From the NCBI GenBank assembly GCA_963664405.1, contig OY761158.1, positions 899,020-963,019 of the forward strand: a DNA stretch of 64,000 nucleotides, in the 5' to 3' direction. The notes beneath the pieces were generated by a model. It was not told where the DNA came from and made no database searches. It saw only the letters and a list, made by a program, of their open reading frames with translations. The stretch is from Thermoanaerobaculia bacterium (GTDB lineage: Bacteria; Acidobacteriota; Thermoanaerobaculia; Multivoradales; Multivoraceae). A program made the translations under genes and the position numbers. Shown in pieces: positions 17,995 to 60,358 of this stretch. The stretch's first letter is position 1; each line of letters begins with the position of its first letter.

Positions 17995-19299
17995 CTAGCG
18001 TAGATTCTCCATCGCATCCACCGCAACGTTCGCCAGGGCGCGCACACCGAGACTGAGCGCCCCTTCGTCGGCAAAGAAGTGGGGCGAATGGTTACGGGCG
18101 ACAGTGGCCGGATCGGCACCCTCGGGAGCGACGCCGAGGAAGAAAAAGACTCCTGGGATCTCCTGTTGGTAGTGCGAAAAGTCCTCAGCGGTGGTGGTCG
18201 GGTCGACCACCTGCGCCTTGCCCTTCCCAGCCACTCGCACCAGCGTCGGAGCGATCATACTGGTCAGCTCGGGATCGTTATAGGTGACCAGATTGCCCCC
18301 ACCGAAGCGAATCTCCGCGGTAGCTCCCGCGCTCGCCGCGATCGACTCCGCAGTACGCCGGATCCGACGGTGCAATTCCAAGCGCACTTCCGGATCGAAG
18401 GTCCGCACTGTGCCAACCATCTCCACCTTATCGGGGATGATGTTGCCCCGCACACCTCCATGGATACTCCCTATGGTGATGATCGAGGGTGTCCGGGTCA
18501 CGTCGACTTGACGACTGACGATACTCTGTAAGCCCAAGATAACTTGGGAGGAAACGACGATGGGATCCACCCCTCCCCAAGGCACGGCGCCATGGGTCTG
18601 CCGACCGTGAATAGTGATGTACAGAGAGTCGCTCGAAGCCATGATGCCGCCGCTCCTGTAGCCGAGGGTGCCCAGGGGATAGGGGAAGACGTGGAGGCCG
18701 AAGATCGCTTCGGGCCGCGGATCCTCGAGAGCGCCCTCGGCGATCATCAAACGGGCCCCTCCCTTCTCTCCCCGCGGCGCCCCTTCCTCGGCGGGCTGAA
18801 ACAGAAACTTCACCGAGCCTCTCAAATGCTCGCGAAGGCCGCTCAGAACCTCTGCAACCCCCATCAAGATCGCCAGGTGCTGGTCGTGCCCGCAGGCGTG
18901 CATGACCCCGACCTCACGGCCCTCGTACATGGTTGTCTGGGTCGAGGCGAACGGCAGATCCACGAGCTCCGTTACCGGTAAGGCATCCATATCGGCACGC
19001 AGCGCGATCACCGGACCTTCCTCGCCGCCGCGAAGCAGCCCCACCACACCGGTGTGAGCGACCTCGGTGCGCACTTCAAGCCCCAGGGCCTCGAGATGCT
19101 CCGCGACTTTGCGCGCGGTGCGGACCTCACGATTGCTGAGCTCCGGATGGCGATGAAAGTCTCGACGCCACAAAACGACCTTCGCTTCGATCTCGGCCGT
19201 CAAACGGTCTATCTCACTTGCGAGGTCGGCGGCTCCGACCGGCAGAGCAGCCAGGCAAAGAGCGGCAACTAGACCAGCGTTTCCAAAGTTCGCGCACAT
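17995..19299 (-). CDS. M20-family amidohydrolase (peptidase M20D, hippurate hydrolase-like); the annotated start codon and first about 10 codons lie inside a MITE
   Basis: ...RRDFHRHPELSNRE...LRADMDALPV...HACGHD... are M20D signatures. The only in-frame ATG upstream of the signal peptide (LVAALCLAALPVGAA) is MCANFGNAGL, encoded by the MITE terminal repeat. Confidence 0.75.
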   Translation of the reverse strand: MCANFGNAGLVAALCLAALPVGAADLASEIDRLTAEIEAKVVLWRRDFHRHPELSNREVRTARKVAEHLEALGLEVRTEVAHTGVVGLLRGGEEGPVIALRADMDALPVTELVDLPFASTQTTMYEGREVGVMHACGHDQHLAILMGVAEVLSGLREHLRGSVKFLFQPAEEGAPRGEKGGARLMIAEGALEDPRPEAIFGLHVFPYPLGTLGYRSGGIMASSDSLYITIHGRQTHGAVPWGGVDPIVVSSQVILGLQSIVSRQVDVTRTPSIITIGSIHGGVRGNIIPDKVEMVGTVRTFDPEVRLELHRRIRRTAESIAASAGATAEIRFGGGNLVTYNDPELTSMIAPTLVRVAGKGKAQVVDPTTTAEDFSHYQQEIPGVFFFLGVAPEGADPATVARNHSPHFFADEGALSLGVRALANVAVDAMENLR

Positions 19300-19434
19300 A
19301 TCTCGGGCCCTTCTGCCCGCTGGCGTCGTTACGCCTCCTCGACATATTGCCCAATATGCCTGCGTCAGCGCGCCTAGCCAGCGAACAGAATGACCTCGAG
19401 CTATGCAGCACGAACTTTGGAAACGCTGGTCTAG
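19269..19434. mobile_element. MITE copy a (166 bp) with about 24-bp terminal inverted repeats CTAGACCAGCGTTTCCAAAGTTCG...CGAACTTTGGAAACGCTGGTCTAG
   Basis: About 90% identical to the copies at 46999-47163 and 48683-48846. It is perfectly bounded by CTAG and lies between the glpK stop and the M20 start. Confidence 0.75.
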
Positions 19435-19464
19435 TGCCCAGGCGTACTTTCTCAGAGCCGGCAT

Positions 19465-20961
19465 TTAAGGCGCGGCCCAAGACCGGGATCGATTCACCGC
19501 ATCGTGCCAGCGATCCACCAGGCCTTTGCGAGTCTTGGGTCTCATATGGGGGCGAAACTGGCGATCAAGCAACCAATTCTTCTCGACGTCACTCTTGCTC
19601 TTCCAGAATCCAACGGCGAGACCGGCAAGATAGGCGGCCCCCAAGGCCGTGGTCTCAGAGACAACGGGACGGCGCACAGTCCGGCCAATGATGTCGGATT
19701 GAAACTGCATCATCAGATCGTTGGTCGAGGCGCCCCCGTCGACGCGCAGCTCACGCAACCGAACTTTGGAGTCACGCTCCATCGCATCGACGACATCACG
19801 CGACTGATAGCACATCGATTCGAGCGTGGCGCGGGCGAGATGCTCGCGAGTCGTGCCGCGCTCGATACCGACGATGACGCCACGCGCGTAGGGGTCCCAG
19901 TAGGGAGTGCCGAGGCCGACAAAGGCAGGCACGAAGAAGACGCCGCCATTGTCCGGGACCGCCGACGCCAGCCGTTCGACATCACTCGACTTGCGCAGGA
20001 TTCGGAGCCCGTCGCGCAGCCATTGCACCGCCGCCCCAGCGACGAATACCGAGCCCTCGAGACAATAAGTCACCTTCCCGTCGACGCCCCAGCCGATGGT
20101 AGTGAGCAACCCGTTCTTGGAGCGCACCGCCTTCGGCCCCGTGTTCATGAGCACAAAGCATCCGGTGCCATAGGTGTTCTTCACCATTCCCGGTCTAAAG
20201 CACCCCTGTCCAAAGGTGGCGGCCTGCTGGTCCCCCGCGATACCCGCGATCGTAATGGGCTCAGAAAAGAGCTTGGCTTCGGTTTCACCGAAGGGGCCGC
20301 TCGACTCTCGCACCTGGGGCAGCATCTCCACAGGAACCTCAAGGATCTTCAGCAGTTCTCGATCCCACTCGAGAGTATTGATGTTGAAGAGCAAAGTACG
20401 GCTGGCATTGGAGAGGTCGGTGGCGTGCACACGACCGCCGGTCAACCGCCACAACAGGAAAGTGTCGATCGTGCCGGCTAGAATCTCGCCCTTCTCAGCC
20501 CGCCGCCGAAGGCCGCGACTGCGGTCGAGGAGATACTTGATCTTGGTACCGGAGAAGTACGGATCGAGAACCAGCCCTGTTTTACGCTGGAACTTGCCCT
20601 CCAGACCCTGATCCTTGAGTCGAGCGCAAATCGGCGCCGAGATCCGACTCTGCCAGACGATCGCATTGCTCACCGGTCGGCCGCTGGCCTTCTCCCATAA
20701 GACAACGGTCTCGCGCTGATTGGTGATACCGATCGCAGCGACATCTCGGGCCTGCGCCTTGGCCTTCCTCAGTGCCGCACGAGCCGTGGAGAGCTGGGTG
20801 CGCCAGATCGCTTCAGGGTCGTGCTCGACGTGACCGGGCGACGGAAAGAGTTGAGGAAACTCCCGCTGGGCACTCGCGACCGCCCGCCCCCTGCGATCGA
20901 ACAAGATGGAACGGCTGGAGGTTGTTCCCTGATCGAGAGCGAGAATGTAGCGCGCCCGCAT
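19465..20961 (-). CDS. glpK: Glycerol kinase
   Basis: 498 aa. ILALDQGTTSSRSILFD..., ...ITNQRETVVLWEK... and FGGY family C-terminal signatures. Confidence 0.9.
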   Translation of the reverse strand: MRARYILALDQGTTSSRSILFDRRGRAVASAQREFPQLFPSPGHVEHDPEAIWRTQLSTARAALRKAKAQARDVAAIGITNQRETVVLWEKASGRPVSNAIVWQSRISAPICARLKDQGLEGKFQRKTGLVLDPYFSGTKIKYLLDRSRGLRRRAEKGEILAGTIDTFLLWRLTGGRVHATDLSNASRTLLFNINTLEWDRELLKILEVPVEMLPQVRESSGPFGETEAKLFSEPITIAGIAGDQQAATFGQGCFRPGMVKNTYGTGCFVLMNTGPKAVRSKNGLLTTIGWGVDGKVTYCLEGSVFVAGAAVQWLRDGLRILRKSSDVERLASAVPDNGGVFFVPAFVGLGTPYWDPYARGVIVGIERGTTREHLARATLESMCYQSRDVVDAMERDSKVRLRELRVDGGASTNDLMMQFQSDIIGRTVRRPVVSETTALGAAYLAGLAVGFWKSKSDVEKNWLLDRQFRPHMRPKTRKGLVDRWHDAVNRSRSWAAP

Positions 20962-46168: not shown

Positions 46169-47002
46169 ATGGCGGTATTCAACGCGCTCGTAAGGCGCCT
46201 CATCGACGCCCTCTTGGGGCCGTTCCAAAACTACCCGGCGATGGTGACTCTGCTGCCGATCTCGGTGGTGGTCACCGTTGCCGCGCTGTTGGTGCTCAAG
46301 CGAACCTCGAACCAGGAGGCTCTCAACCGCGTCAAGGCGAAGACGCACGCCGGCATCTTCGAGATCAGGCTCTTCAACGACGATCTGAGGGCCATCTTCT
46401 CGGCCCAACGGAACATCTTGGTTCAGGTAGCAAAGCAGATCGGCCTGACCCTAGTGCCCCTGCTGTGGATGCTAGTGCCGATGGCCGTCCTCCTCCCTCA
46501 GCTCCAATTCCAGTACGGCTACCTTGGCATCGAGCCCGGCGAGCCGGTGCTCCTCATCGCCACCCTCGACGCACCGCTGGGAGCCGACGAGACGAAGCCG
46601 GTCTTTCACCTCGAGACCCCCACCGGCGTTCGCGCGGAGACGGGGCCAATCTGGGTGCCCGCCAAGAACGAGCTGGTGTGGCGCCTGGTGGCGGATGAGC
46701 GCGGCAGCTTTGAGCTCTTGATCGTCGATGGCGGGGGAGGTAAGTCGGTCACCAAGAGCCTGGAGGTCTCGGACCAGATCCGAAGGCGCTCGCCGAAGAG
46801 GGTTACCGGCTTCTGGTCCCAAATCGCCTACCCCGCCGAGTCCCCGCTGCCGCCCGGTGCGCCTTTTCGGGAGATCTCCCTCGCCTACCGAGACGCAGAA
46901 GTCAGCTTTTTCGGCTGGGAGACCAACTGGATGATCGCCTTCCTCCTGCTCACCCTCGTCTTCGCCTTTGCCCTACGCGGGCCCCTTGGCGTCACCTTCT
47001 AG
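46169..47002 (+). CDS. Hypothetical membrane protein; its stop codon TAG is the terminal CTAG of a MITE
   Basis: 277 aa with several hydrophobic segments. It starts 12 nt after the small RHH-like gene. Confidence 0.55.
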   Translation: MAVFNALVRRLIDALLGPFQNYPAMVTLLPISVVVTVAALLVLKRTSNQEALNRVKAKTHAGIFEIRLFNDDLRAIFSAQRNILVQVAKQIGLTLVPLLWMLVPMAVLLPQLQFQYGYLGIEPGEPVLLIATLDAPLGADETKPVFHLETPTGVRAETGPIWVPAKNELVWRLVADERGSFELLIVDGGGGKSVTKSLEVSDQIRRRSPKRVTGFWSQIAYPAESPLPPGAPFREISLAYRDAEVSFFGWETNWMIAFLLLTLVFAFALRGPLGVTF

Positions 47003-47163
47003 ACCAGCGTTTCCGAAGTTCGCGCACAGTTCTCGGCCCCTTCTGCCCGCTGGCGGCGTTGCGCCTCCTCGACATAGTCCCTGCTATGCCTGCGTCGGCG
47101 CGCCTTGCCAGCGAACAGAATGACCTCGAGTTCTGTACACGAACTTCGGAAACGCTGGTCTAG
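46999..47163. mobile_element. MITE copy b (165 bp)
   Basis: ctagaccagcgtttccgaagttcg...cgaacttcggaaacgctggtctag. Same family as 19269-19434 and 48683-48846. Confidence 0.75.
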
Positions 47164-48656: not shown

Positions 48657-48682
48657 GGAGACACGAGAGGCCGTAGCTGGTC

Positions 48683-48846
48683 CTAGACCAGCGTTTCCAA
48701 AGTTCGCGCACATATCTCGGCCCCTTCTGTCCGCTGACGGCGTTTCGCCTCCTCGACATATTGCCAATATGCCTGCGTCGGCGCGCCTGGCCAGCGAACA
48801 GAATGACCTCGAGCTATGTATACGAACTTTGGAAACGCTGGTCTAG
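48683..48846. mobile_element. MITE copy c (164 bp)
   Basis: ctagaccagcgtttccaaagttcg...cgaactttggaaacgctggtctag. Its last CTAG supplies the TAG stop of the minus-strand gene 48843..49487. Confidence 0.75.
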
Positions 48847-49487
48847 TCAATCGCGAAGCAGTAGAAGTACCCGTTGCCGCCAGTTCCCTGCAAATCCTTC
48901 TGACCGCAGGCCCGGCTCCCATGAGCCGAGTTCCACGACGACGGTACCTGTCCGCCCCCTTGGCGATCATGGTGGCCGACCTGCGCACTGCCGGCACCGT
49001 TCGTTGTCCAGTTGCTGCAGGTGTGATCTTTGCCGTCGGTGAAACGGGTCCCATCCAACTGGGACCCGGTCAAGATGTCGTGCATATTGGGATCATCACC
49101 CCGGCCGTTGACAACCTCGCCCTTTTCATTGAGCTGCGTCTCTTTGGTGAGACCTACGTTCGAGTAGTGCAGCTCGCTGACGTTGGCGGCAACCTGCGCT
49201 CCCTTGGCATTGAACCAGGGCCCTGAACCGATGCGGCCTCTGGCATCGACCCCTCCGGAGCCACCCGTGCTCAAATAAGCGTGCCATGTCTTGGCGCCGC
49301 CACCCGCAGCCTTCGCCAACATGGCGCAGTGTCGGTCGGCCCCATCGAGCCCCCCGAGGTTGGCACCGTCACCCGACCCCCGGCTGGTAATGAAGAAACT
49401 CATCGCACCCTTCTCCTGCGAGAGAACGGGCGAAGCCGCCACTGCCAATATCGTTCCAACAAGTAGACATCTGATCTCGACCTTCAT
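48843..49487 (-). CDS. Secreted Gly/Asn-rich protein of unknown function
   Basis: Start trimmed to MKVEIRCLLVGTILAVAASPVLSQE, a signal peptide. The rest is low-complexity Gly-rich with conserved Cys residues. Confidence 0.55.
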   Translation of the reverse strand: MKVEIRCLLVGTILAVAASPVLSQEKGAMSFFITSRGSGDGANLGGLDGADRHCAMLAKAAGGGAKTWHAYLSTGGSGGVDARGRIGSGPWFNAKGAQVAANVSELHYSNVGLTKETQLNEKGEVVNGRGDDPNMHDILTGSQLDGTRFTDGKDHTCSNWTTNGAGSAQVGHHDRQGGGQVPSSWNSAHGSRACGQKDLQGTGGNGYFYCFAID

Positions 49488-56812: not shown

Positions 56813-58279
56813 ATGAGCTCGGTAACGCCCTTCCTCCCCGCTCTGCTACTCCTCGCTGGGTGCCGGGGTCCAGATCCTTCTCGCCGTGACTCTCGTCGAG
56901 CAACCTTCCCCGCACTGACGGTCGCCGAGGCTCCAACAACGGCGAGGACCCCGGAGGGTCAGTACATCTCGTGGAAGGAGCACCGCATCGACGATCAAGA
57001 CCTGAACGGCGGCATCGAGCTGCGCGGCGGTGACGGCCTCCAGATGGCCGACCTCGATCGCGACGGTCACCAGGACATCGTCTCGGTCCACGAAGACAAC
57101 TACCACATTCGTCTCGCCTTCGGCACCGACGATCCGGACCGGTGGGAGCTCGCGACCTTGGCGGAAGGCGAGGAGGCGAACGCCGCCGAAGACGTCTCGA
57201 TCGCGGACGCCAATGGCGACGGCTGGCTGGACATCGTCGCCGCGACCGAGCTGGCGCACCTGATCTACTTCCAGAACCCCGCAGACCCCACCGAGACACG
57301 CAGTGGCGCATGGCCGCGCACGATCCCGCCGGGCACACGAGACCGAGGCTCCTGGATCCGGGTCTTCTTTGGCGACTTCGACGGCGACGGCAGGCCGGAA
57401 GTCTCGGGTCCGAACAAAGGCGACCAACTTCCCGCCGAAAAAGAAGGACCGGCCGAGTTCGCACCCAAAGAGATCTCCTGGTTCGAGCTACCCGGGGACC
57501 CTCTTGCCGGCGATCTGTGGGAAGAGCACGTGCTGGTGCGGATCAAGATCCCGATGAACGCTCGACCTGTAGACCTCGATCGCGACGGCGACCTCGACAT
57601 TCTCGGTGGCAGCCGCTTCGAGATGCGCCCCTTCTGGTTCGAGAATGTCGGAGGGTCGCCGACCGACTTCGAGCTTCACCCGATCGACGTAAGCGGTCGC
57701 AACCAGGCGCAGCCGGAGATCTTCGGCGGCAAGTGGCTGACAGCGATGAACGTCGTCATCGAAGACCTCAACGACGACGGCCGGCTCGACATCATCCTCC
57801 AGGAGACGCCCTTCATAGTCAGCTGGATGGAGCAGCCTCCAAGCTTCAACCAGCCCTGGCAGCTACACAAGATCGGCGACTTGAGCCCCGACACGTCGAC
57901 CGGTCTTACCTTGGTCGACATCGACGGCGACGGGCGCAAGGATCTATTCACCGGCGGCTACAGCCAGAACCCTCGCGATCATGACGGTGAGGACATCACC
58001 ACGAACAGCCAGACCGGACGCCTTGCATGGTGGAAGCAGCCGGCGGACCCGAGCGCCGAGTGGACCCTGCACAACGTCAGCCGTCGCAAGCGCGGCATGT
58101 ACGACCAGTTCGTCGCCCGCGACATGGATGGTGACGGAGACGTCGACTTCGTCACCACGCGAGGCAACAGCGGGACTTACGACGGCGTACTCTGGCTCGA
58201 GCAGGTCCGCACTGCCGAGCAGACCCGGTCGTTCCTGCCGGCCCGCGAGAAGGAGAGCGCCCACCTCCCCCTGCCCTAG
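56813..58279 (+). CDS. FG-GAP/VCBS-repeat (integrin-alpha-like beta-propeller) lipoprotein
   Basis: Lipobox LLLLAGCRG. Repeated D-x-D/N-GDG Ca-binding-like loops (ADLDRDGHQD, ADANGDGWLD, FDGDGRPE, DLDRDGDLD, LNDDGRLD, DIDGDGRKD, DMDGDGDVD). Confidence 0.75.
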   Translation: MSSVTPFLPALLLLAGCRGPDPSRRDSRRATFPALTVAEAPTTARTPEGQYISWKEHRIDDQDLNGGIELRGGDGLQMADLDRDGHQDIVSVHEDNYHIRLAFGTDDPDRWELATLAEGEEANAAEDVSIADANGDGWLDIVAATELAHLIYFQNPADPTETRSGAWPRTIPPGTRDRGSWIRVFFGDFDGDGRPEVSGPNKGDQLPAEKEGPAEFAPKEISWFELPGDPLAGDLWEEHVLVRIKIPMNARPVDLDRDGDLDILGGSRFEMRPFWFENVGGSPTDFELHPIDVSGRNQAQPEIFGGKWLTAMNVVIEDLNDDGRLDIILQETPFIVSWMEQPPSFNQPWQLHKIGDLSPDTSTGLTLVDIDGDGRKDLFTGGYSQNPRDHDGEDITTNSQTGRLAWWKQPADPSAEWTLHNVSRRKRGMYDQFVARDMDGDGDVDFVTTRGNSGTYDGVLWLEQVRTAEQTRSFLPAREKESAHLPLP

Positions 58280-58280
58280 C

Positions 58281-58720
58281 CGGGGAAAATGATGGATATC
58301 ATTTCCCCCGACTAGTTGTTCTTTGGCGCCGAGGACGGCGCACTCAGGCGGTGCTTCCTATTCGCTCCGGGCAGCGGTCCGGTTTCCTTCCGCGCAGACT
58401 CCTCTAGGAAGCCTGGACCACAGGAGCTACGGGTGCGCCGTCCTCGGCGTCCTTCCCGAGAGCGGCTCCGCAGGAGCCGGTCGAGTTGACCGCCGTGGAG
58501 CTCGCGCCAGCGAGGTCACAAGAACAACAATGAGCCGGAGGAAATGATAGCCATCATTTCTGGAGGCGAAGCCCGAACGCTAGGAGAGTGTCCGAGTATT
58601 CGGCCAGAGCCGTTTCCCGGAGCGAGTAGGAAGCAACGCCCTAGTGCGCCGTCCTCGGCGCCAACAACAATGAGCCGGAGGAAATGATAGCCATCATTTC
58701 TGGAGGCGAAGCCCGAACAC
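58281..58720. repeat. Dense composite repeat array: three AAATGAT-N4-ATCATTT palindromes (58286-58307, 58541-58560, 58685-58704); a 55-bp inverted-repeat pair built on GGCGCCGAGGACGGCGCAC (58324-58380 versus 58605-58662); and a 57-bp direct repeat (58519-58576 and 58663-58720) that duplicates the last codons of the PQQ-ADH gene
   Basis: Read directly from the sequence. The modules match those at 9654-9815 and 21016-21062. The region lies between the convergent 3' ends of 56813..58279 and 58694..60358. Confidence 0.7.
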
Positions 58721-60358
58721 GAAGAGCGCGCTGCCGGCGGCGGCAGCTACGTACTGCTTACCTTCGACGGCATACGTGATCGGACAGCTGGCAATCGACC
58801 CGCCCAGAGTCGCCTTCCACAGCAGCTCACCCGTCTTCGCATCGAGGGCGTGGAAATAGCCCTCGCGGCCGCCGGCGAAAACGAGGTCGGAGGCCGTGCT
58901 CAAGACGCCACTCTGAGTGACATCGGTCATCTTGAATCGCCAACGCTGCTCGCCCGTTCGCGGATCGAGAGCCAGTACCGCACCGTTGGCGACGTCTTCG
59001 GTCCAGTTATTGATCAGTGGGCGACCCCTACCCGTCACGCCCGGCGCTCCGGGGTTCGGACTGGTCGGCGGACCACCCAAGAAGCGTTGACCGGGTCGGT
59101 ACTCGACCTCCACCGGTCGGAACACATGTCCGCAGTTCTCCCATGCAGAAACGTAGATCAGCTCGGTGTTGGGGCTGAACGAAGGAGAAAACCAATTCGT
59201 GCCTCCGGGAACGCAAGGGTAGGTCGTCGCTCCGAGGGGTTGAGGGGTCTCGATCGGTCGTCCCTTCTCGTCGAGCCCGCTAGCCCAGTTGACCTTGACG
59301 AAGGGCGTCCCCCTGATGAATTCGCCGGTGGCGCGGTCGAGCACATAAAAGAAGCCGTTGCGGTTTGCCCACAGCATGAGCTTGTCGCTGCCCACTCCGG
59401 TGACGTCTAGATCGACGAGCACAGGAACCTGGACCGCGTCATAGTCATAGTCATCGTTGGGAGTGAACTGGAAGTGCCACTCGAGCTCGCCGGTATCGGC
59501 GTCGAGCGCGACGACAGAGTCGGAGTAGAGGTTGTCGCCGGGTCGTTGGGCCGGATTCCAGTCCGGCCCCGGGTTGCCGATGCCCCAGTAAGTGAGGTTG
59601 AGCTCGGGGTCGTAGGAGCCGGTGACCCACACCGACGCACCACCATGCTCCCAGGCGTCGCCGCCGCCCTCCCAGGTCTCATGGCCAGGCTCCCCGGGCC
59701 CCGGGATGGTGTAGAAACGCCACACTTCATCCCCGCTCACGGCATCGTAGGCGGCAATGAACCCGCGGATTCCGTACTCGCCGCCGGCAACGCCGACGAC
59801 GACCTTGTCACCGATGACCAGGGGAGCCAGGGTCATCGCGTAGCCCAGACTGGGGTCGGCAACCGCGGTCTTCCAGATCGGTCGGCCGGAGATGGTGTCG
59901 ATCGCGATCAACTGCGCGTCGATCGTCGCCATGAACAGAGTCTCGCCGAGAATGGCGAGGCCCCGGTTCACCGAACCACAGCACGGTCTCGACTCGGAGG
60001 AAGGGACGTGCTCATACCTCCAAAAGGCACTTCCGAGCTTGGCGTCGAGAGCGATCACGGTGTTCGGCGCTTCGGTCAGATACATAACACCGTCGACCAC
60101 CAGCGGAGTGGTCTCGAACTTTTCCAACGACCGAGCCTGGAACACCCACTTCATTTCCAGCTCGCCAACGTTGTCCGGTGCGATCTGCCGTAACAGACTG
60201 TGGCGGGTACTCGCGTAATCGCCGGAATAGGTGAGCCAGTTGTGCGGCTCTTTCGCGGCTTCGAGCAGGCGTTTGGACGTCACCTGTGCGCTCAGGCTCT
60301 GAGCCGGCAGCATCAGCGAGAGAAGCAACAGGCCGGCACGACTCATGAGTCTGCGCAT
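58694..60358 (-). CDS. PQQ-dependent alcohol dehydrogenase (methanol/ethanol family, XoxF/ExaA-like)
   Basis: Start trimmed to MRRLMSRAGLLLLSL, a signal peptide. ...NWLTYSGDYASTRHSLL..., the CC ring (RPCCGSVNRG) and propeller W-motifs follow. The start overlaps the upstream cytochrome stop (TAATG). Confidence 0.85.
   Translation of the reverse strand: MRRLMSRAGLLLLSLMLPAQSLSAQVTSKRLLEAAKEPHNWLTYSGDYASTRHSLLRQIAPDNVGELEMKWVFQARSLEKFETTPLVVDGVMYLTEAPNTVIALDAKLGSAFWRYEHVPSSESRPCCGSVNRGLAILGETLFMATIDAQLIAIDTISGRPIWKTAVADPSLGYAMTLAPLVIGDKVVVGVAGGEYGIRGFIAAYDAVSGDEVWRFYTIPGPGEPGHETWEGGGDAWEHGGASVWVTGSYDPELNLTYWGIGNPGPDWNPAQRPGDNLYSDSVVALDADTGELEWHFQFTPNDDYDYDAVQVPVLVDLDVTGVGSDKLMLWANRNGFFYVLDRATGEFIRGTPFVKVNWASGLDEKGRPIETPQPLGATTYPCVPGGTNWFSPSFSPNTELIYVSAWENCGHVFRPVEVEYRPGQRFLGGPPTSPNPGAPGVTGRGRPLINNWTEDVANGAVLALDPRTGEQRWRFKMTDVTQSGVLSTASDLVFAGGREGYFHALDAKTGELLWKATLGGSIASCPITYAVEGKQYVAAAAGSALFVFGLRLQK

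Follow-up and report, generated by a model that had tools for sequence, protein, structure and literature searches.

Several families of small bacterial repeats provide precedents for the element described here, a 160-bp sequence that occurs in three copies (a, b and c) within a 64,000-nucleotide stretch of the genome of a Thermoanaerobaculia bacterium (Acidobacteriota; assembly GCA_963664405.1, contig OY761158.1, positions 899,020 to 963,019 of the forward strand; hereafter, the window). We consider it highly likely that this element is a non-autonomous, IS630/Tc1-mariner-derived MITE (miniature inverted-repeat transposable element) that inserts at TA within CTAG, and that its pattern of placement at gene boundaries reflects target choice together with purifying selection. 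The RUP elements of pneumococcus are similar in being non-coding, in having ends like those of IS630-Spn1, in inserting at TA, and in occurring as many near-identical copies for which mobilisation in trans has been inferred (PMC2229807). RUP is 107 bp long with short inverted repeats, however, whereas the window element measures 160 bp with perfect ends of 21-24 bp, has a preference for CTAG and three open frames, is unlike RUP in sequence and is hosted by uncultured soil or aquatic lineages. TA is also duplicated by IS630 (Shigella sonnei) and ISY100 (Synechocystis), and IS630 shares the preference for CTAG (PMC2170065). The 24-bp inverted repeats of ISY100, which are the likely minimum cis requirement for its transposition (PMC2170065), match in length the 24-bp end that the window MITE has in common with an insertion sequence described below. 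Both IS630 and ISY100 are autonomous and 1.1-1.2 kb long, whereas the window holds only the 160-bp derivative, made of two right ends.

The Correia/NEMIS elements of Neisseria come close in size and shape, at ~107-155 bp with ~24-bp inverted repeats, a terminal TA and a full-length RNA hairpin, and some of their size classes have open frames that are fused to genes (PMC2229807). They differ in having no sequence relation to the window MITE and no matching insertion sequence, and their IHF and promoter motifs were not found in the window MITE. Palindromes that lie in frame in protein-coding genes are known from the RPE of Rickettsia and from YPAL/ERIC (PMC2229807; PMC10969869), and some palindromes of the YPAL/ERIC type supply part of a signal peptide, as in YPO1552 of Yersinia (PMC2229807). 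No transposase partner has been identified for RPE or YPAL/ERIC and their insertions occur throughout proteins, whereas in the window family 3 of the 19 insertions listed are intragenic, all of them within the first ten codons. The likeness to RPE is one of behaviour alone (in-frame, stop-free insertion), and no sequence relation is claimed. MITEPsy1 of Pseudomonas syringae is likewise small and has CTAG bordering its insertions (PMC3189936), but it duplicates 4 nt and resembles the IS5 family, whereas the window element duplicates TA and matches the IS630 family. The anatomy, target and behaviour of the window MITE are all precedented. The recently active IS630-type MITE family to which it belongs is real, and is probably undescribed as a family.

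The three copies were recognised in an earlier, sequence-only reading of the window, and its coordinates (Table 1), its terminal inverted repeats (TIRs) of about 24 bp and its estimate of about 90% identity are all borne out. Directly visible at each of the three copies are perfect 24-bp inverted repeats, CTAGACCAGCGTTTCC(A/G)AAGTTCG, a length that includes the flanking C-TA and TA-G and leaves 21 bp within the element. Copies b and c are 89% and 93% identical to copy a, respectively. In the three-copy alignment, mean column identity is 91% and similarity breaks off exactly at the outer CTAGs; copy a has a further, internal CTAG at 19374. When the window was scanned with the end sequence GACCAGCGTTTCCAAAGTTCG at up to 3 mismatches, the six matches obtained were the six copy ends, against a chance expectation of 0. 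No transposase is found among the translations of the 158-160-bp copies, nor was one found in the 64-kb window by tblastn with an IS630-family transposase. The window also yielded no Rfam match at gathering thresholds and no tRNA gene, and no match came from PLSDB plasmids, searched with the element, or from the viral contigs of IMG/VR, scanned with the end sequence.

Related copies were sought by scanning one genome per species with the end sequence and by an additional metagenome scan; counts for the family refer to the matches listed, which are a small sample, and loci outside the window are cited by L numbers. Full-length copies that are 77-90% identical occur in Acidobacteriota metagenome-assembled genome (MAG) sequences (L003, L010, L011) and in Vicinamibacteria MAG sequences (L002, L005, L008), and L001 holds a more divergent copy that is interrupted by the contig end. 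Eight further independent copies came from the metagenome scan (L019-L022, L024-L027), L023 being a repeat of L008. Copies outside the window number one in a relative and at least 15 in other contigs. Identity reaches 97-99% between copies at different loci and in different samples, and the element of copy a is 98.8% identical to copies elsewhere (L024 and site b of the relative). Small size, lack of a transposase, inverted repeats, target duplication and dispersed copies were all found, and the identification as a MITE made from the window alone is upheld.

An insertion sequence of 1293 bp in an Alphaproteobacteria MAG (L007 258-1550), with CTAG on both sides, carries the 24 bases of the MITE end at one of its own ends. 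Its transposase, 382 aa long from the ATG (within a 392-aa open reading frame, ORF), matches the Pfam families DDE_3, HTH_32 and HTH_29 and scores 205 bits against NCBIfam transpos_IS630, for which the cut-off is 100. L028 and L029 encode transposases that are 80-89% identical and have the same architecture, again with CTAG on both flanks. A direct comparison of the right end of these insertion sequences with the MITE end gives agreement at 24/24 bp in L007 and L028 and a close variant in L029; a resident partner insertion sequence would be expected to carry the end GACCAGCGTTTCC. The left end of the insertion sequence differs, matching imperfectly (CTAGACCATCGATTCCA...AAAGTTGT). Because both MITE ends equal the right end of the insertion sequence while its left end differs, the element is, to judge by its sequence, a MITE made of two right ends of an IS630-family insertion sequence. 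The search for an autonomous parent with the same TIR, which had been proposed along with the MITE, was rewarded with a matching end in other genomes (L007, L028) and with none in the window; transposase homologues belonged to a very abundant IS630 group. The end common to an alphaproteobacterial IS630-family element and Acidobacteriota MITEs points to a spread of transposase specificity across phyla.

One of the Acidobacteriota contigs also carries an element of a different make. At L003 3170-3336 (MAG CAXWPL01 contig_5), ~190 nt from the regular copy at L003 2812-2977, lies a CTAG-bounded element of 167 bp with a ~105-nt core that is 85% identical to the window MITE and with terminal repeats that differ (CTAGTGCAGTGTCTCCGACATGGCTTACCAA...TTGGCAAGCCATGTCGGAGACACAACACTAG), 9/13 of the first element bases matching. 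Its core is better conserved than its ends, the reverse of the usual MITE pattern, and its end sequence is absent from the window.

Syntenic contigs that are 95-97% identical to the window were reached through members of 90%-identity protein clusters, and a comparison with them reveals insertion polymorphism directly. Site a is empty in L012, L013 and L014, where an intact 435-aa M20 gene comes immediately after glpK. L015, L016 and L017 have no insertion at site c (...GGGCCG CTAG TCAATCG...), and at site b of L017 the flanks found in the window are joined exactly via one CTAG. Target duplication, which the sequence-only reading had wished to see checked on empty alleles, is apparent from the single CTAG at the empty sites b and c as against two in the window, the TA having been duplicated. 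In a relative (L018 and L015), a copy is present at the same TA of site b in the opposite orientation. This copy is 98.8% identical to copy a and only ~89% identical to copy b, and it therefore represents an independent hit on the same TA and stop codon.

Two further features were observed at these sites. In the relative's copy at site b (L018 6831-7040, L015 4900-5058; ENA ERZ28763718), an unrelated ~2-kb insertion sequence has entered the internal CTAG and divided the copy in two; this insertion sequence encodes a 573-aa DDE_Tnp_1 transposase, has CTAG on both sides and ends in GCCGAAGTTCT... and ...AGAACTTCGGG. From the position of the halves of the split copy, on separate contigs and beside different neighbours, a rearrangement or a break in the assembly at the insertion sequence can be suspected. 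In the window, nine extra bases, TAGCTGGTC (48674-48682, + strand), lie immediately to the left of copy c; none of the three empty alleles has them. Within them, GCTGGTC equals the terminal 7 nt of the element and, with the first bases of copy c, makes up a short repeat in head-to-head arrangement. These bases may be an end fragment, a footprint or the remnant of an earlier event; an excision footprint in particular was considered, and no simple scenario fits.

Table 1. Positions of the MITE copies and of the genes that they adjoin or interrupt, in window coordinates
Feature	Position	Length	Strand	Remarks
MITE copy a	19269-19434	166 bp	+	Element proper 19272-19431, 160 bp, GACC...GGTC, flanks C-TA / TA-G
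MITE copy b	46999-47163	165 bp	+	Element proper 47002-47160, 159 bp
MITE copy c	48683-48846	164 bp	+	Element proper 48686-48843, 158 bp
M20-family amidohydrolase ORF	17995..19464	489 codons	-	Copy a lies inside as a 54-codon in-frame insertion
Ancestral first ten M20 codons, MPALRKYAWA	19435..19464		-	Copy a stands between these codons and the remaining signal peptide
Outward-facing ATG in copy a, MCANFGNAGL...	19297..19299		-	In frame with M20; start in the public annotation
277-aa gene	46169..47002	277 aa	+	Copy b targets the native stop, TTC TAG (TAG within left CTAG)
214-aa gene	48843..49487 (ORF open to 49574)	214 aa	-	Copy c targets the native stop, GAC TAG (CTA within right CTAG)

At sites b and c, the element landed on stop codons. 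The left CTAG of copy b and the right CTAG of copy c had been read as the stops of the two adjoining genes, and the empty alleles confirm this, with the genes at b and c ending in TTC TAG and GAC TAG, respectively, prior to insertion. The gene at site b has no Pfam match. With G as its first base and C as its last, the element re-creates CTAG at each junction, and the stop codon and the protein are unchanged whichever way the element is oriented. The more general statement that copy termini sit on start or stop codons holds for copies b and c on stops and fails for copy a, which lies ten codons into the M20 gene.

CTAG is under-represented in the window, with 57 sites against ~139 in shuffles, and the GC content of the window is 62-63% rather than the 67% that had been assumed. 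According to a hand-merged gene list, the 53 CTAG sites that were present before insertion comprise 6 stop codons (2 occupied), 27 coding sites (1 occupied) and 20 intergenic sites (0 occupied). The chance that at least two of three random hits on window CTAG sites would fall on stop codons is 0.03. Only ~11% of window CTAG sites are stop codons, which contradicts the notion that CTAG is rare outside them. Among the matches listed there are 19 independent insertions, of which 7 are on stop codons (window b and c, site b of the relative, L001 at CutA1, L011 at a 2-hydroxyacid dehydrogenase, L025 and probably L027), 3 are in frame in the 5' ends of signal-peptide genes and 9 are intergenic, most of these at most ~100 nt from a gene end. 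Compared with the 11% of all CTAG sites that are stop codons, 7/19 is an excess (p = 0.003). Landing on stop codons is seen at b and c, but the preference that the sequence-only reading had posited is, across the family as listed, only marginal when set against non-coding CTAG sites. The gene-boundary bias is best explained by the simplest account, namely CTAG targeting and the loss of harmful insertions, for which no stop-seeking mechanism is needed.

Copy a, as its reading frame indicates, is a stop-free, in-frame insertion after codon 10 of the M20 gene. It had been taken to provide the only ATG of that gene; there is an in-frame ATG upstream, at 19464-19462, and the ORF is stop-free through the whole element. 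In silico removal of 19273-19434 (162 bp, 54 codons) restores MPALRKYAWALVAALCLAALPVGAADLASEIDR..., a typical signal peptide. Uninterrupted orthologues have the N-termini MPALRKYVPGVVVALCLAALPVGAVDLASEIDR (P0121, 435 aa) and MLALRKYARAVVVALCLAPPVGAADLATEIDR (P0122), beginning MPALRKY... or MLALRKY..., and more distant M20 homologues have N-terminal signal peptides too. The deposited M20 protein (P0001, 434 aa, MCANFGNAGLVAAL...) starts at the ATG inside the element, and its first ten residues are mobile-element sequence; the true M20 N-terminus is displayed by the 435-aa proteins of the relatives. Copy a does end 30 nt from the glpK stop (19465-19467), as had been noted. This stop and the ancestral M20 ATG are directly adjacent (TAA ATG) in the window (19465/19464) and in relatives (L012 9999-10001), and because of this adjacency we suggest a translational coupling of glpK and M20 that would still feed ribosomes into the interrupted frame. 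For glpK itself, the named homologues at 70-75% identity belong to Hydrogenedentota, Thermoanaerobaculia, Acidobacteriota and Pirellulales. A + strand ORF at 19054..19272 that ends at the left CTAG of copy a was scored as coding, and was rejected as antisense to the M20 gene.

Insertions of the same kind were found in two other genes. In L010 the element follows codon 6 of a sulfatase lipoprotein gene, for which the reconstructed N-terminus is MRTLTVGLICLVALALSAC, and in L002 it follows codon 2 of TolB, with a reconstructed N-terminus of MTRAHYTFLLRAIVV.... In M20, sulfatase and TolB alike, the insertion adds 54 codons and stays open. These cases raise the possibility that the same MITE has become adapted to gene boundaries, either as a portable translation start or N-terminal module for exported proteins or as a 3' RNA hairpin, which we consider unlikely. 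The G...C ends regenerate TAG on either strand, the 54 codons are open in 3/4 of the frames that a coding CTAG can occupy (as measured on the 160-bp copies), and all three intragenic copies listed are open and lie within the first 2-10 codons of signal peptides. Open frames total 36/72 as against 16.6 +/- 3.5 in shuffles, a comparison that overstates the support because the copies share ancestry, and open frames are in part expected at 62% GC. Outward-facing ATGs ~30 nt from each end could let translation start anew and run into a signal peptide's hydrophobic core, and the in-frame MITE ATG would yield MCANFGNAGLVAALCLAAL... in the window and MRLELGKRWSRAHYTFLL... for TolB. The short MCANFGNAGL frame attributed to every copy is present in a and c, however, and missing from b, where the ATG is CTG; the ATG is absent from the L010 subfamily as well. 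No clear ribosome-binding site was found in or next to the copies, and the empty alleles are evidently functional, which indicates that the insertions are not needed.

An RNA-level role has the hairpin in its favour. Each copy folds as one long hairpin, which for copy a has a free energy of -87 kcal/mol (z = -10.5 against shuffles). Across the 13 distinct copies listed, the hairpin is 94% paired over its full length, with slid controls at 26-38%. Compensatory changes affect 15/52 hairpin pairs, a level reached by 0/500 shuffles, and an A/G variant at end position 14 is matched by T/C at the other end in 11/13 copies; the shared ancestry of the copies inflates these shuffle statistics too. The hairpin also persists in the sister element of L003, in which the core is shared and the terminal repeats have diverged. 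Transposition may require the symmetry, or the symmetry may have its effect in RNA, but a palindrome could be a plain transposition requirement, and scans in and next to the copies for promoters and terminators found no promoter-like or terminator-like site. If adaptation to gene boundaries were nevertheless true, it would be a further instance in which a MITE furnishes secreted proteins with translation starts.

Returning to the IS630-type MITE, its target can be read directly from the flanks. Among the 17 complete copies listed, the left flank is C-TA in 16, in agreement with the target first proposed, TA within CTAG, and T-TA in one; the right flank is TA-G in 13, TA-C in one and not TA in three. 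CTAG stands at both ends of most copies, as would also be expected of an IS5-family MITE (IS5 or IS427 group) that duplicates a 4-bp CTAG in the manner of MITEPsy1 of Pseudomonas syringae. A MITE related to IS5 is on record as duplicating 4 nt, CTAG (PMC3189936), and the CTAG-flanked DDE_Tnp_1 insertion sequence within the relative's copy demonstrates that such elements occur in the lineage. Two copies are informative in this respect, however. L021 is flanked by TTAG and CTAG and L010 by CTAG and CTAC, so that the 4-mers are unequal and only TA is in common; it follows that TA is what is duplicated and that the preference is for CTAG as target. The MITE ends, moreover, match the IS630-family insertion sequence at 24/24 bp and do not match the DDE_Tnp_1 ends (GCCGAAGTTCT...). 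An IS5-family origin is consequently very improbable, and of the two transposase types that the sequence-only reading had left side by side, the IS630-like is upheld and the IS5/IS427-like is disfavoured. TA is duplicated on insertion, almost always within C-TA-G, and IS630 itself prefers TA within 5'-CTAG-3' according to Tenzen and Ohtsubo (1991), as cited in PMC2170065.

Two of the listed copies have unusual right junctions. L027 1283-1445 and L024 299-460 are 97-99% identical to copy a and have TT instead of TA at the right flank. The junction in L027 reads GGTC-TTA-ATG, which places the TAA stop of the upstream minus-strand gene directly beside the element and gives the impression that a TAG-stop target gained an extra base.

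Duplication by recombination of a structured RNA gene, or of a palindromic host element of the REP/BIME type, would fit the single long hairpin of each copy and its conserved pairing, but is extremely improbable in view of the lack of an Rfam match in the window, the precise and polymorphic insertion with TA duplication among near-identical genomes, the two orientations at one site, the ends that equal an insertion-sequence end and the copy within coding sequence, an element of 160 bp with a duplicated TA and one intragenic copy being at variance with REP/BIME (20-40 bp, extragenic, no target duplication).

Under the IS630-type reading, an IS630/Tc1-mariner-family transposase would presumably mobilise the 160-bp element in trans. 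Insertion proceeds by cut and paste at TA, nearly always in 5'-CTAG-3', and duplicates the TA. Where that TA belongs to a TAG or TAA stop codon, the codon is restored as TAG in either orientation, leaving the upstream protein unaltered. Most intragenic insertions would then be lost through a presumed selective filter, with survivors on stop codons, in short intergenic spacers and in extreme 5' signal-peptide regions. In the latter, 160 + 2 bp give 54 stop-free codons and keep the signal-peptide frame open. Any effect of the copies on expression is likewise putative.

Several observations weigh against this reading. The right flanks of L002, L024 and L027 are not TA, and the empty site a in relatives is G-TA-G, not C-TA-G. 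Similarity between the insertion sequence and the MITE ends at 24 bp, and no source was found for the 110-bp core. The insertion sequences that match belong to an Alphaproteobacteria MAG and to metagenome contigs without a taxonomic assignment, whereas the named carriers of the MITE are Acidobacteriota and Vicinamibacteria MAGs. The window has no transposase, and none of the best 120 transposase clusters is on the megabase contigs of the window genome (6.78 Mb) or its relatives. In regard to the selective filter, 7/16 insertions on stop codons compared with 23% of non-coding CTAG sites is a marginal difference (p = 0.055), and the CTAG baseline is that of a single 64-kb window, with genes called by a home-made program.

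The window MITE has practical consequences for annotation, as it leads gene callers to a start codon inside a mobile element, and the annotation hides the interruption of the M20 gene. With its empty alleles, it offers a worked example of how a preference for CTAG combined with TAG-rebuilding ends concentrates surviving insertions on stop codons by no special mechanism. For this uncultured lineage, the insertion polymorphisms between genomes of 95-97% identity can serve as strain markers.

The window contains a second, unrelated repeat family at 58284-58726, which fills the 414-bp spacer after the gene at 56813..58279, a spacer with four CTAG sites. This repeat has inverted arms of 55 nt (58323-58377 / 58610-58664, 89% complementary) and 37 nt, together with a 64-nt direct repeat (58523-58586 / 58663-58726) of 95% identity. 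An 85-bp stretch of it is 89% identical to the Acidobacteriota MAG locus L010 5828-5912.

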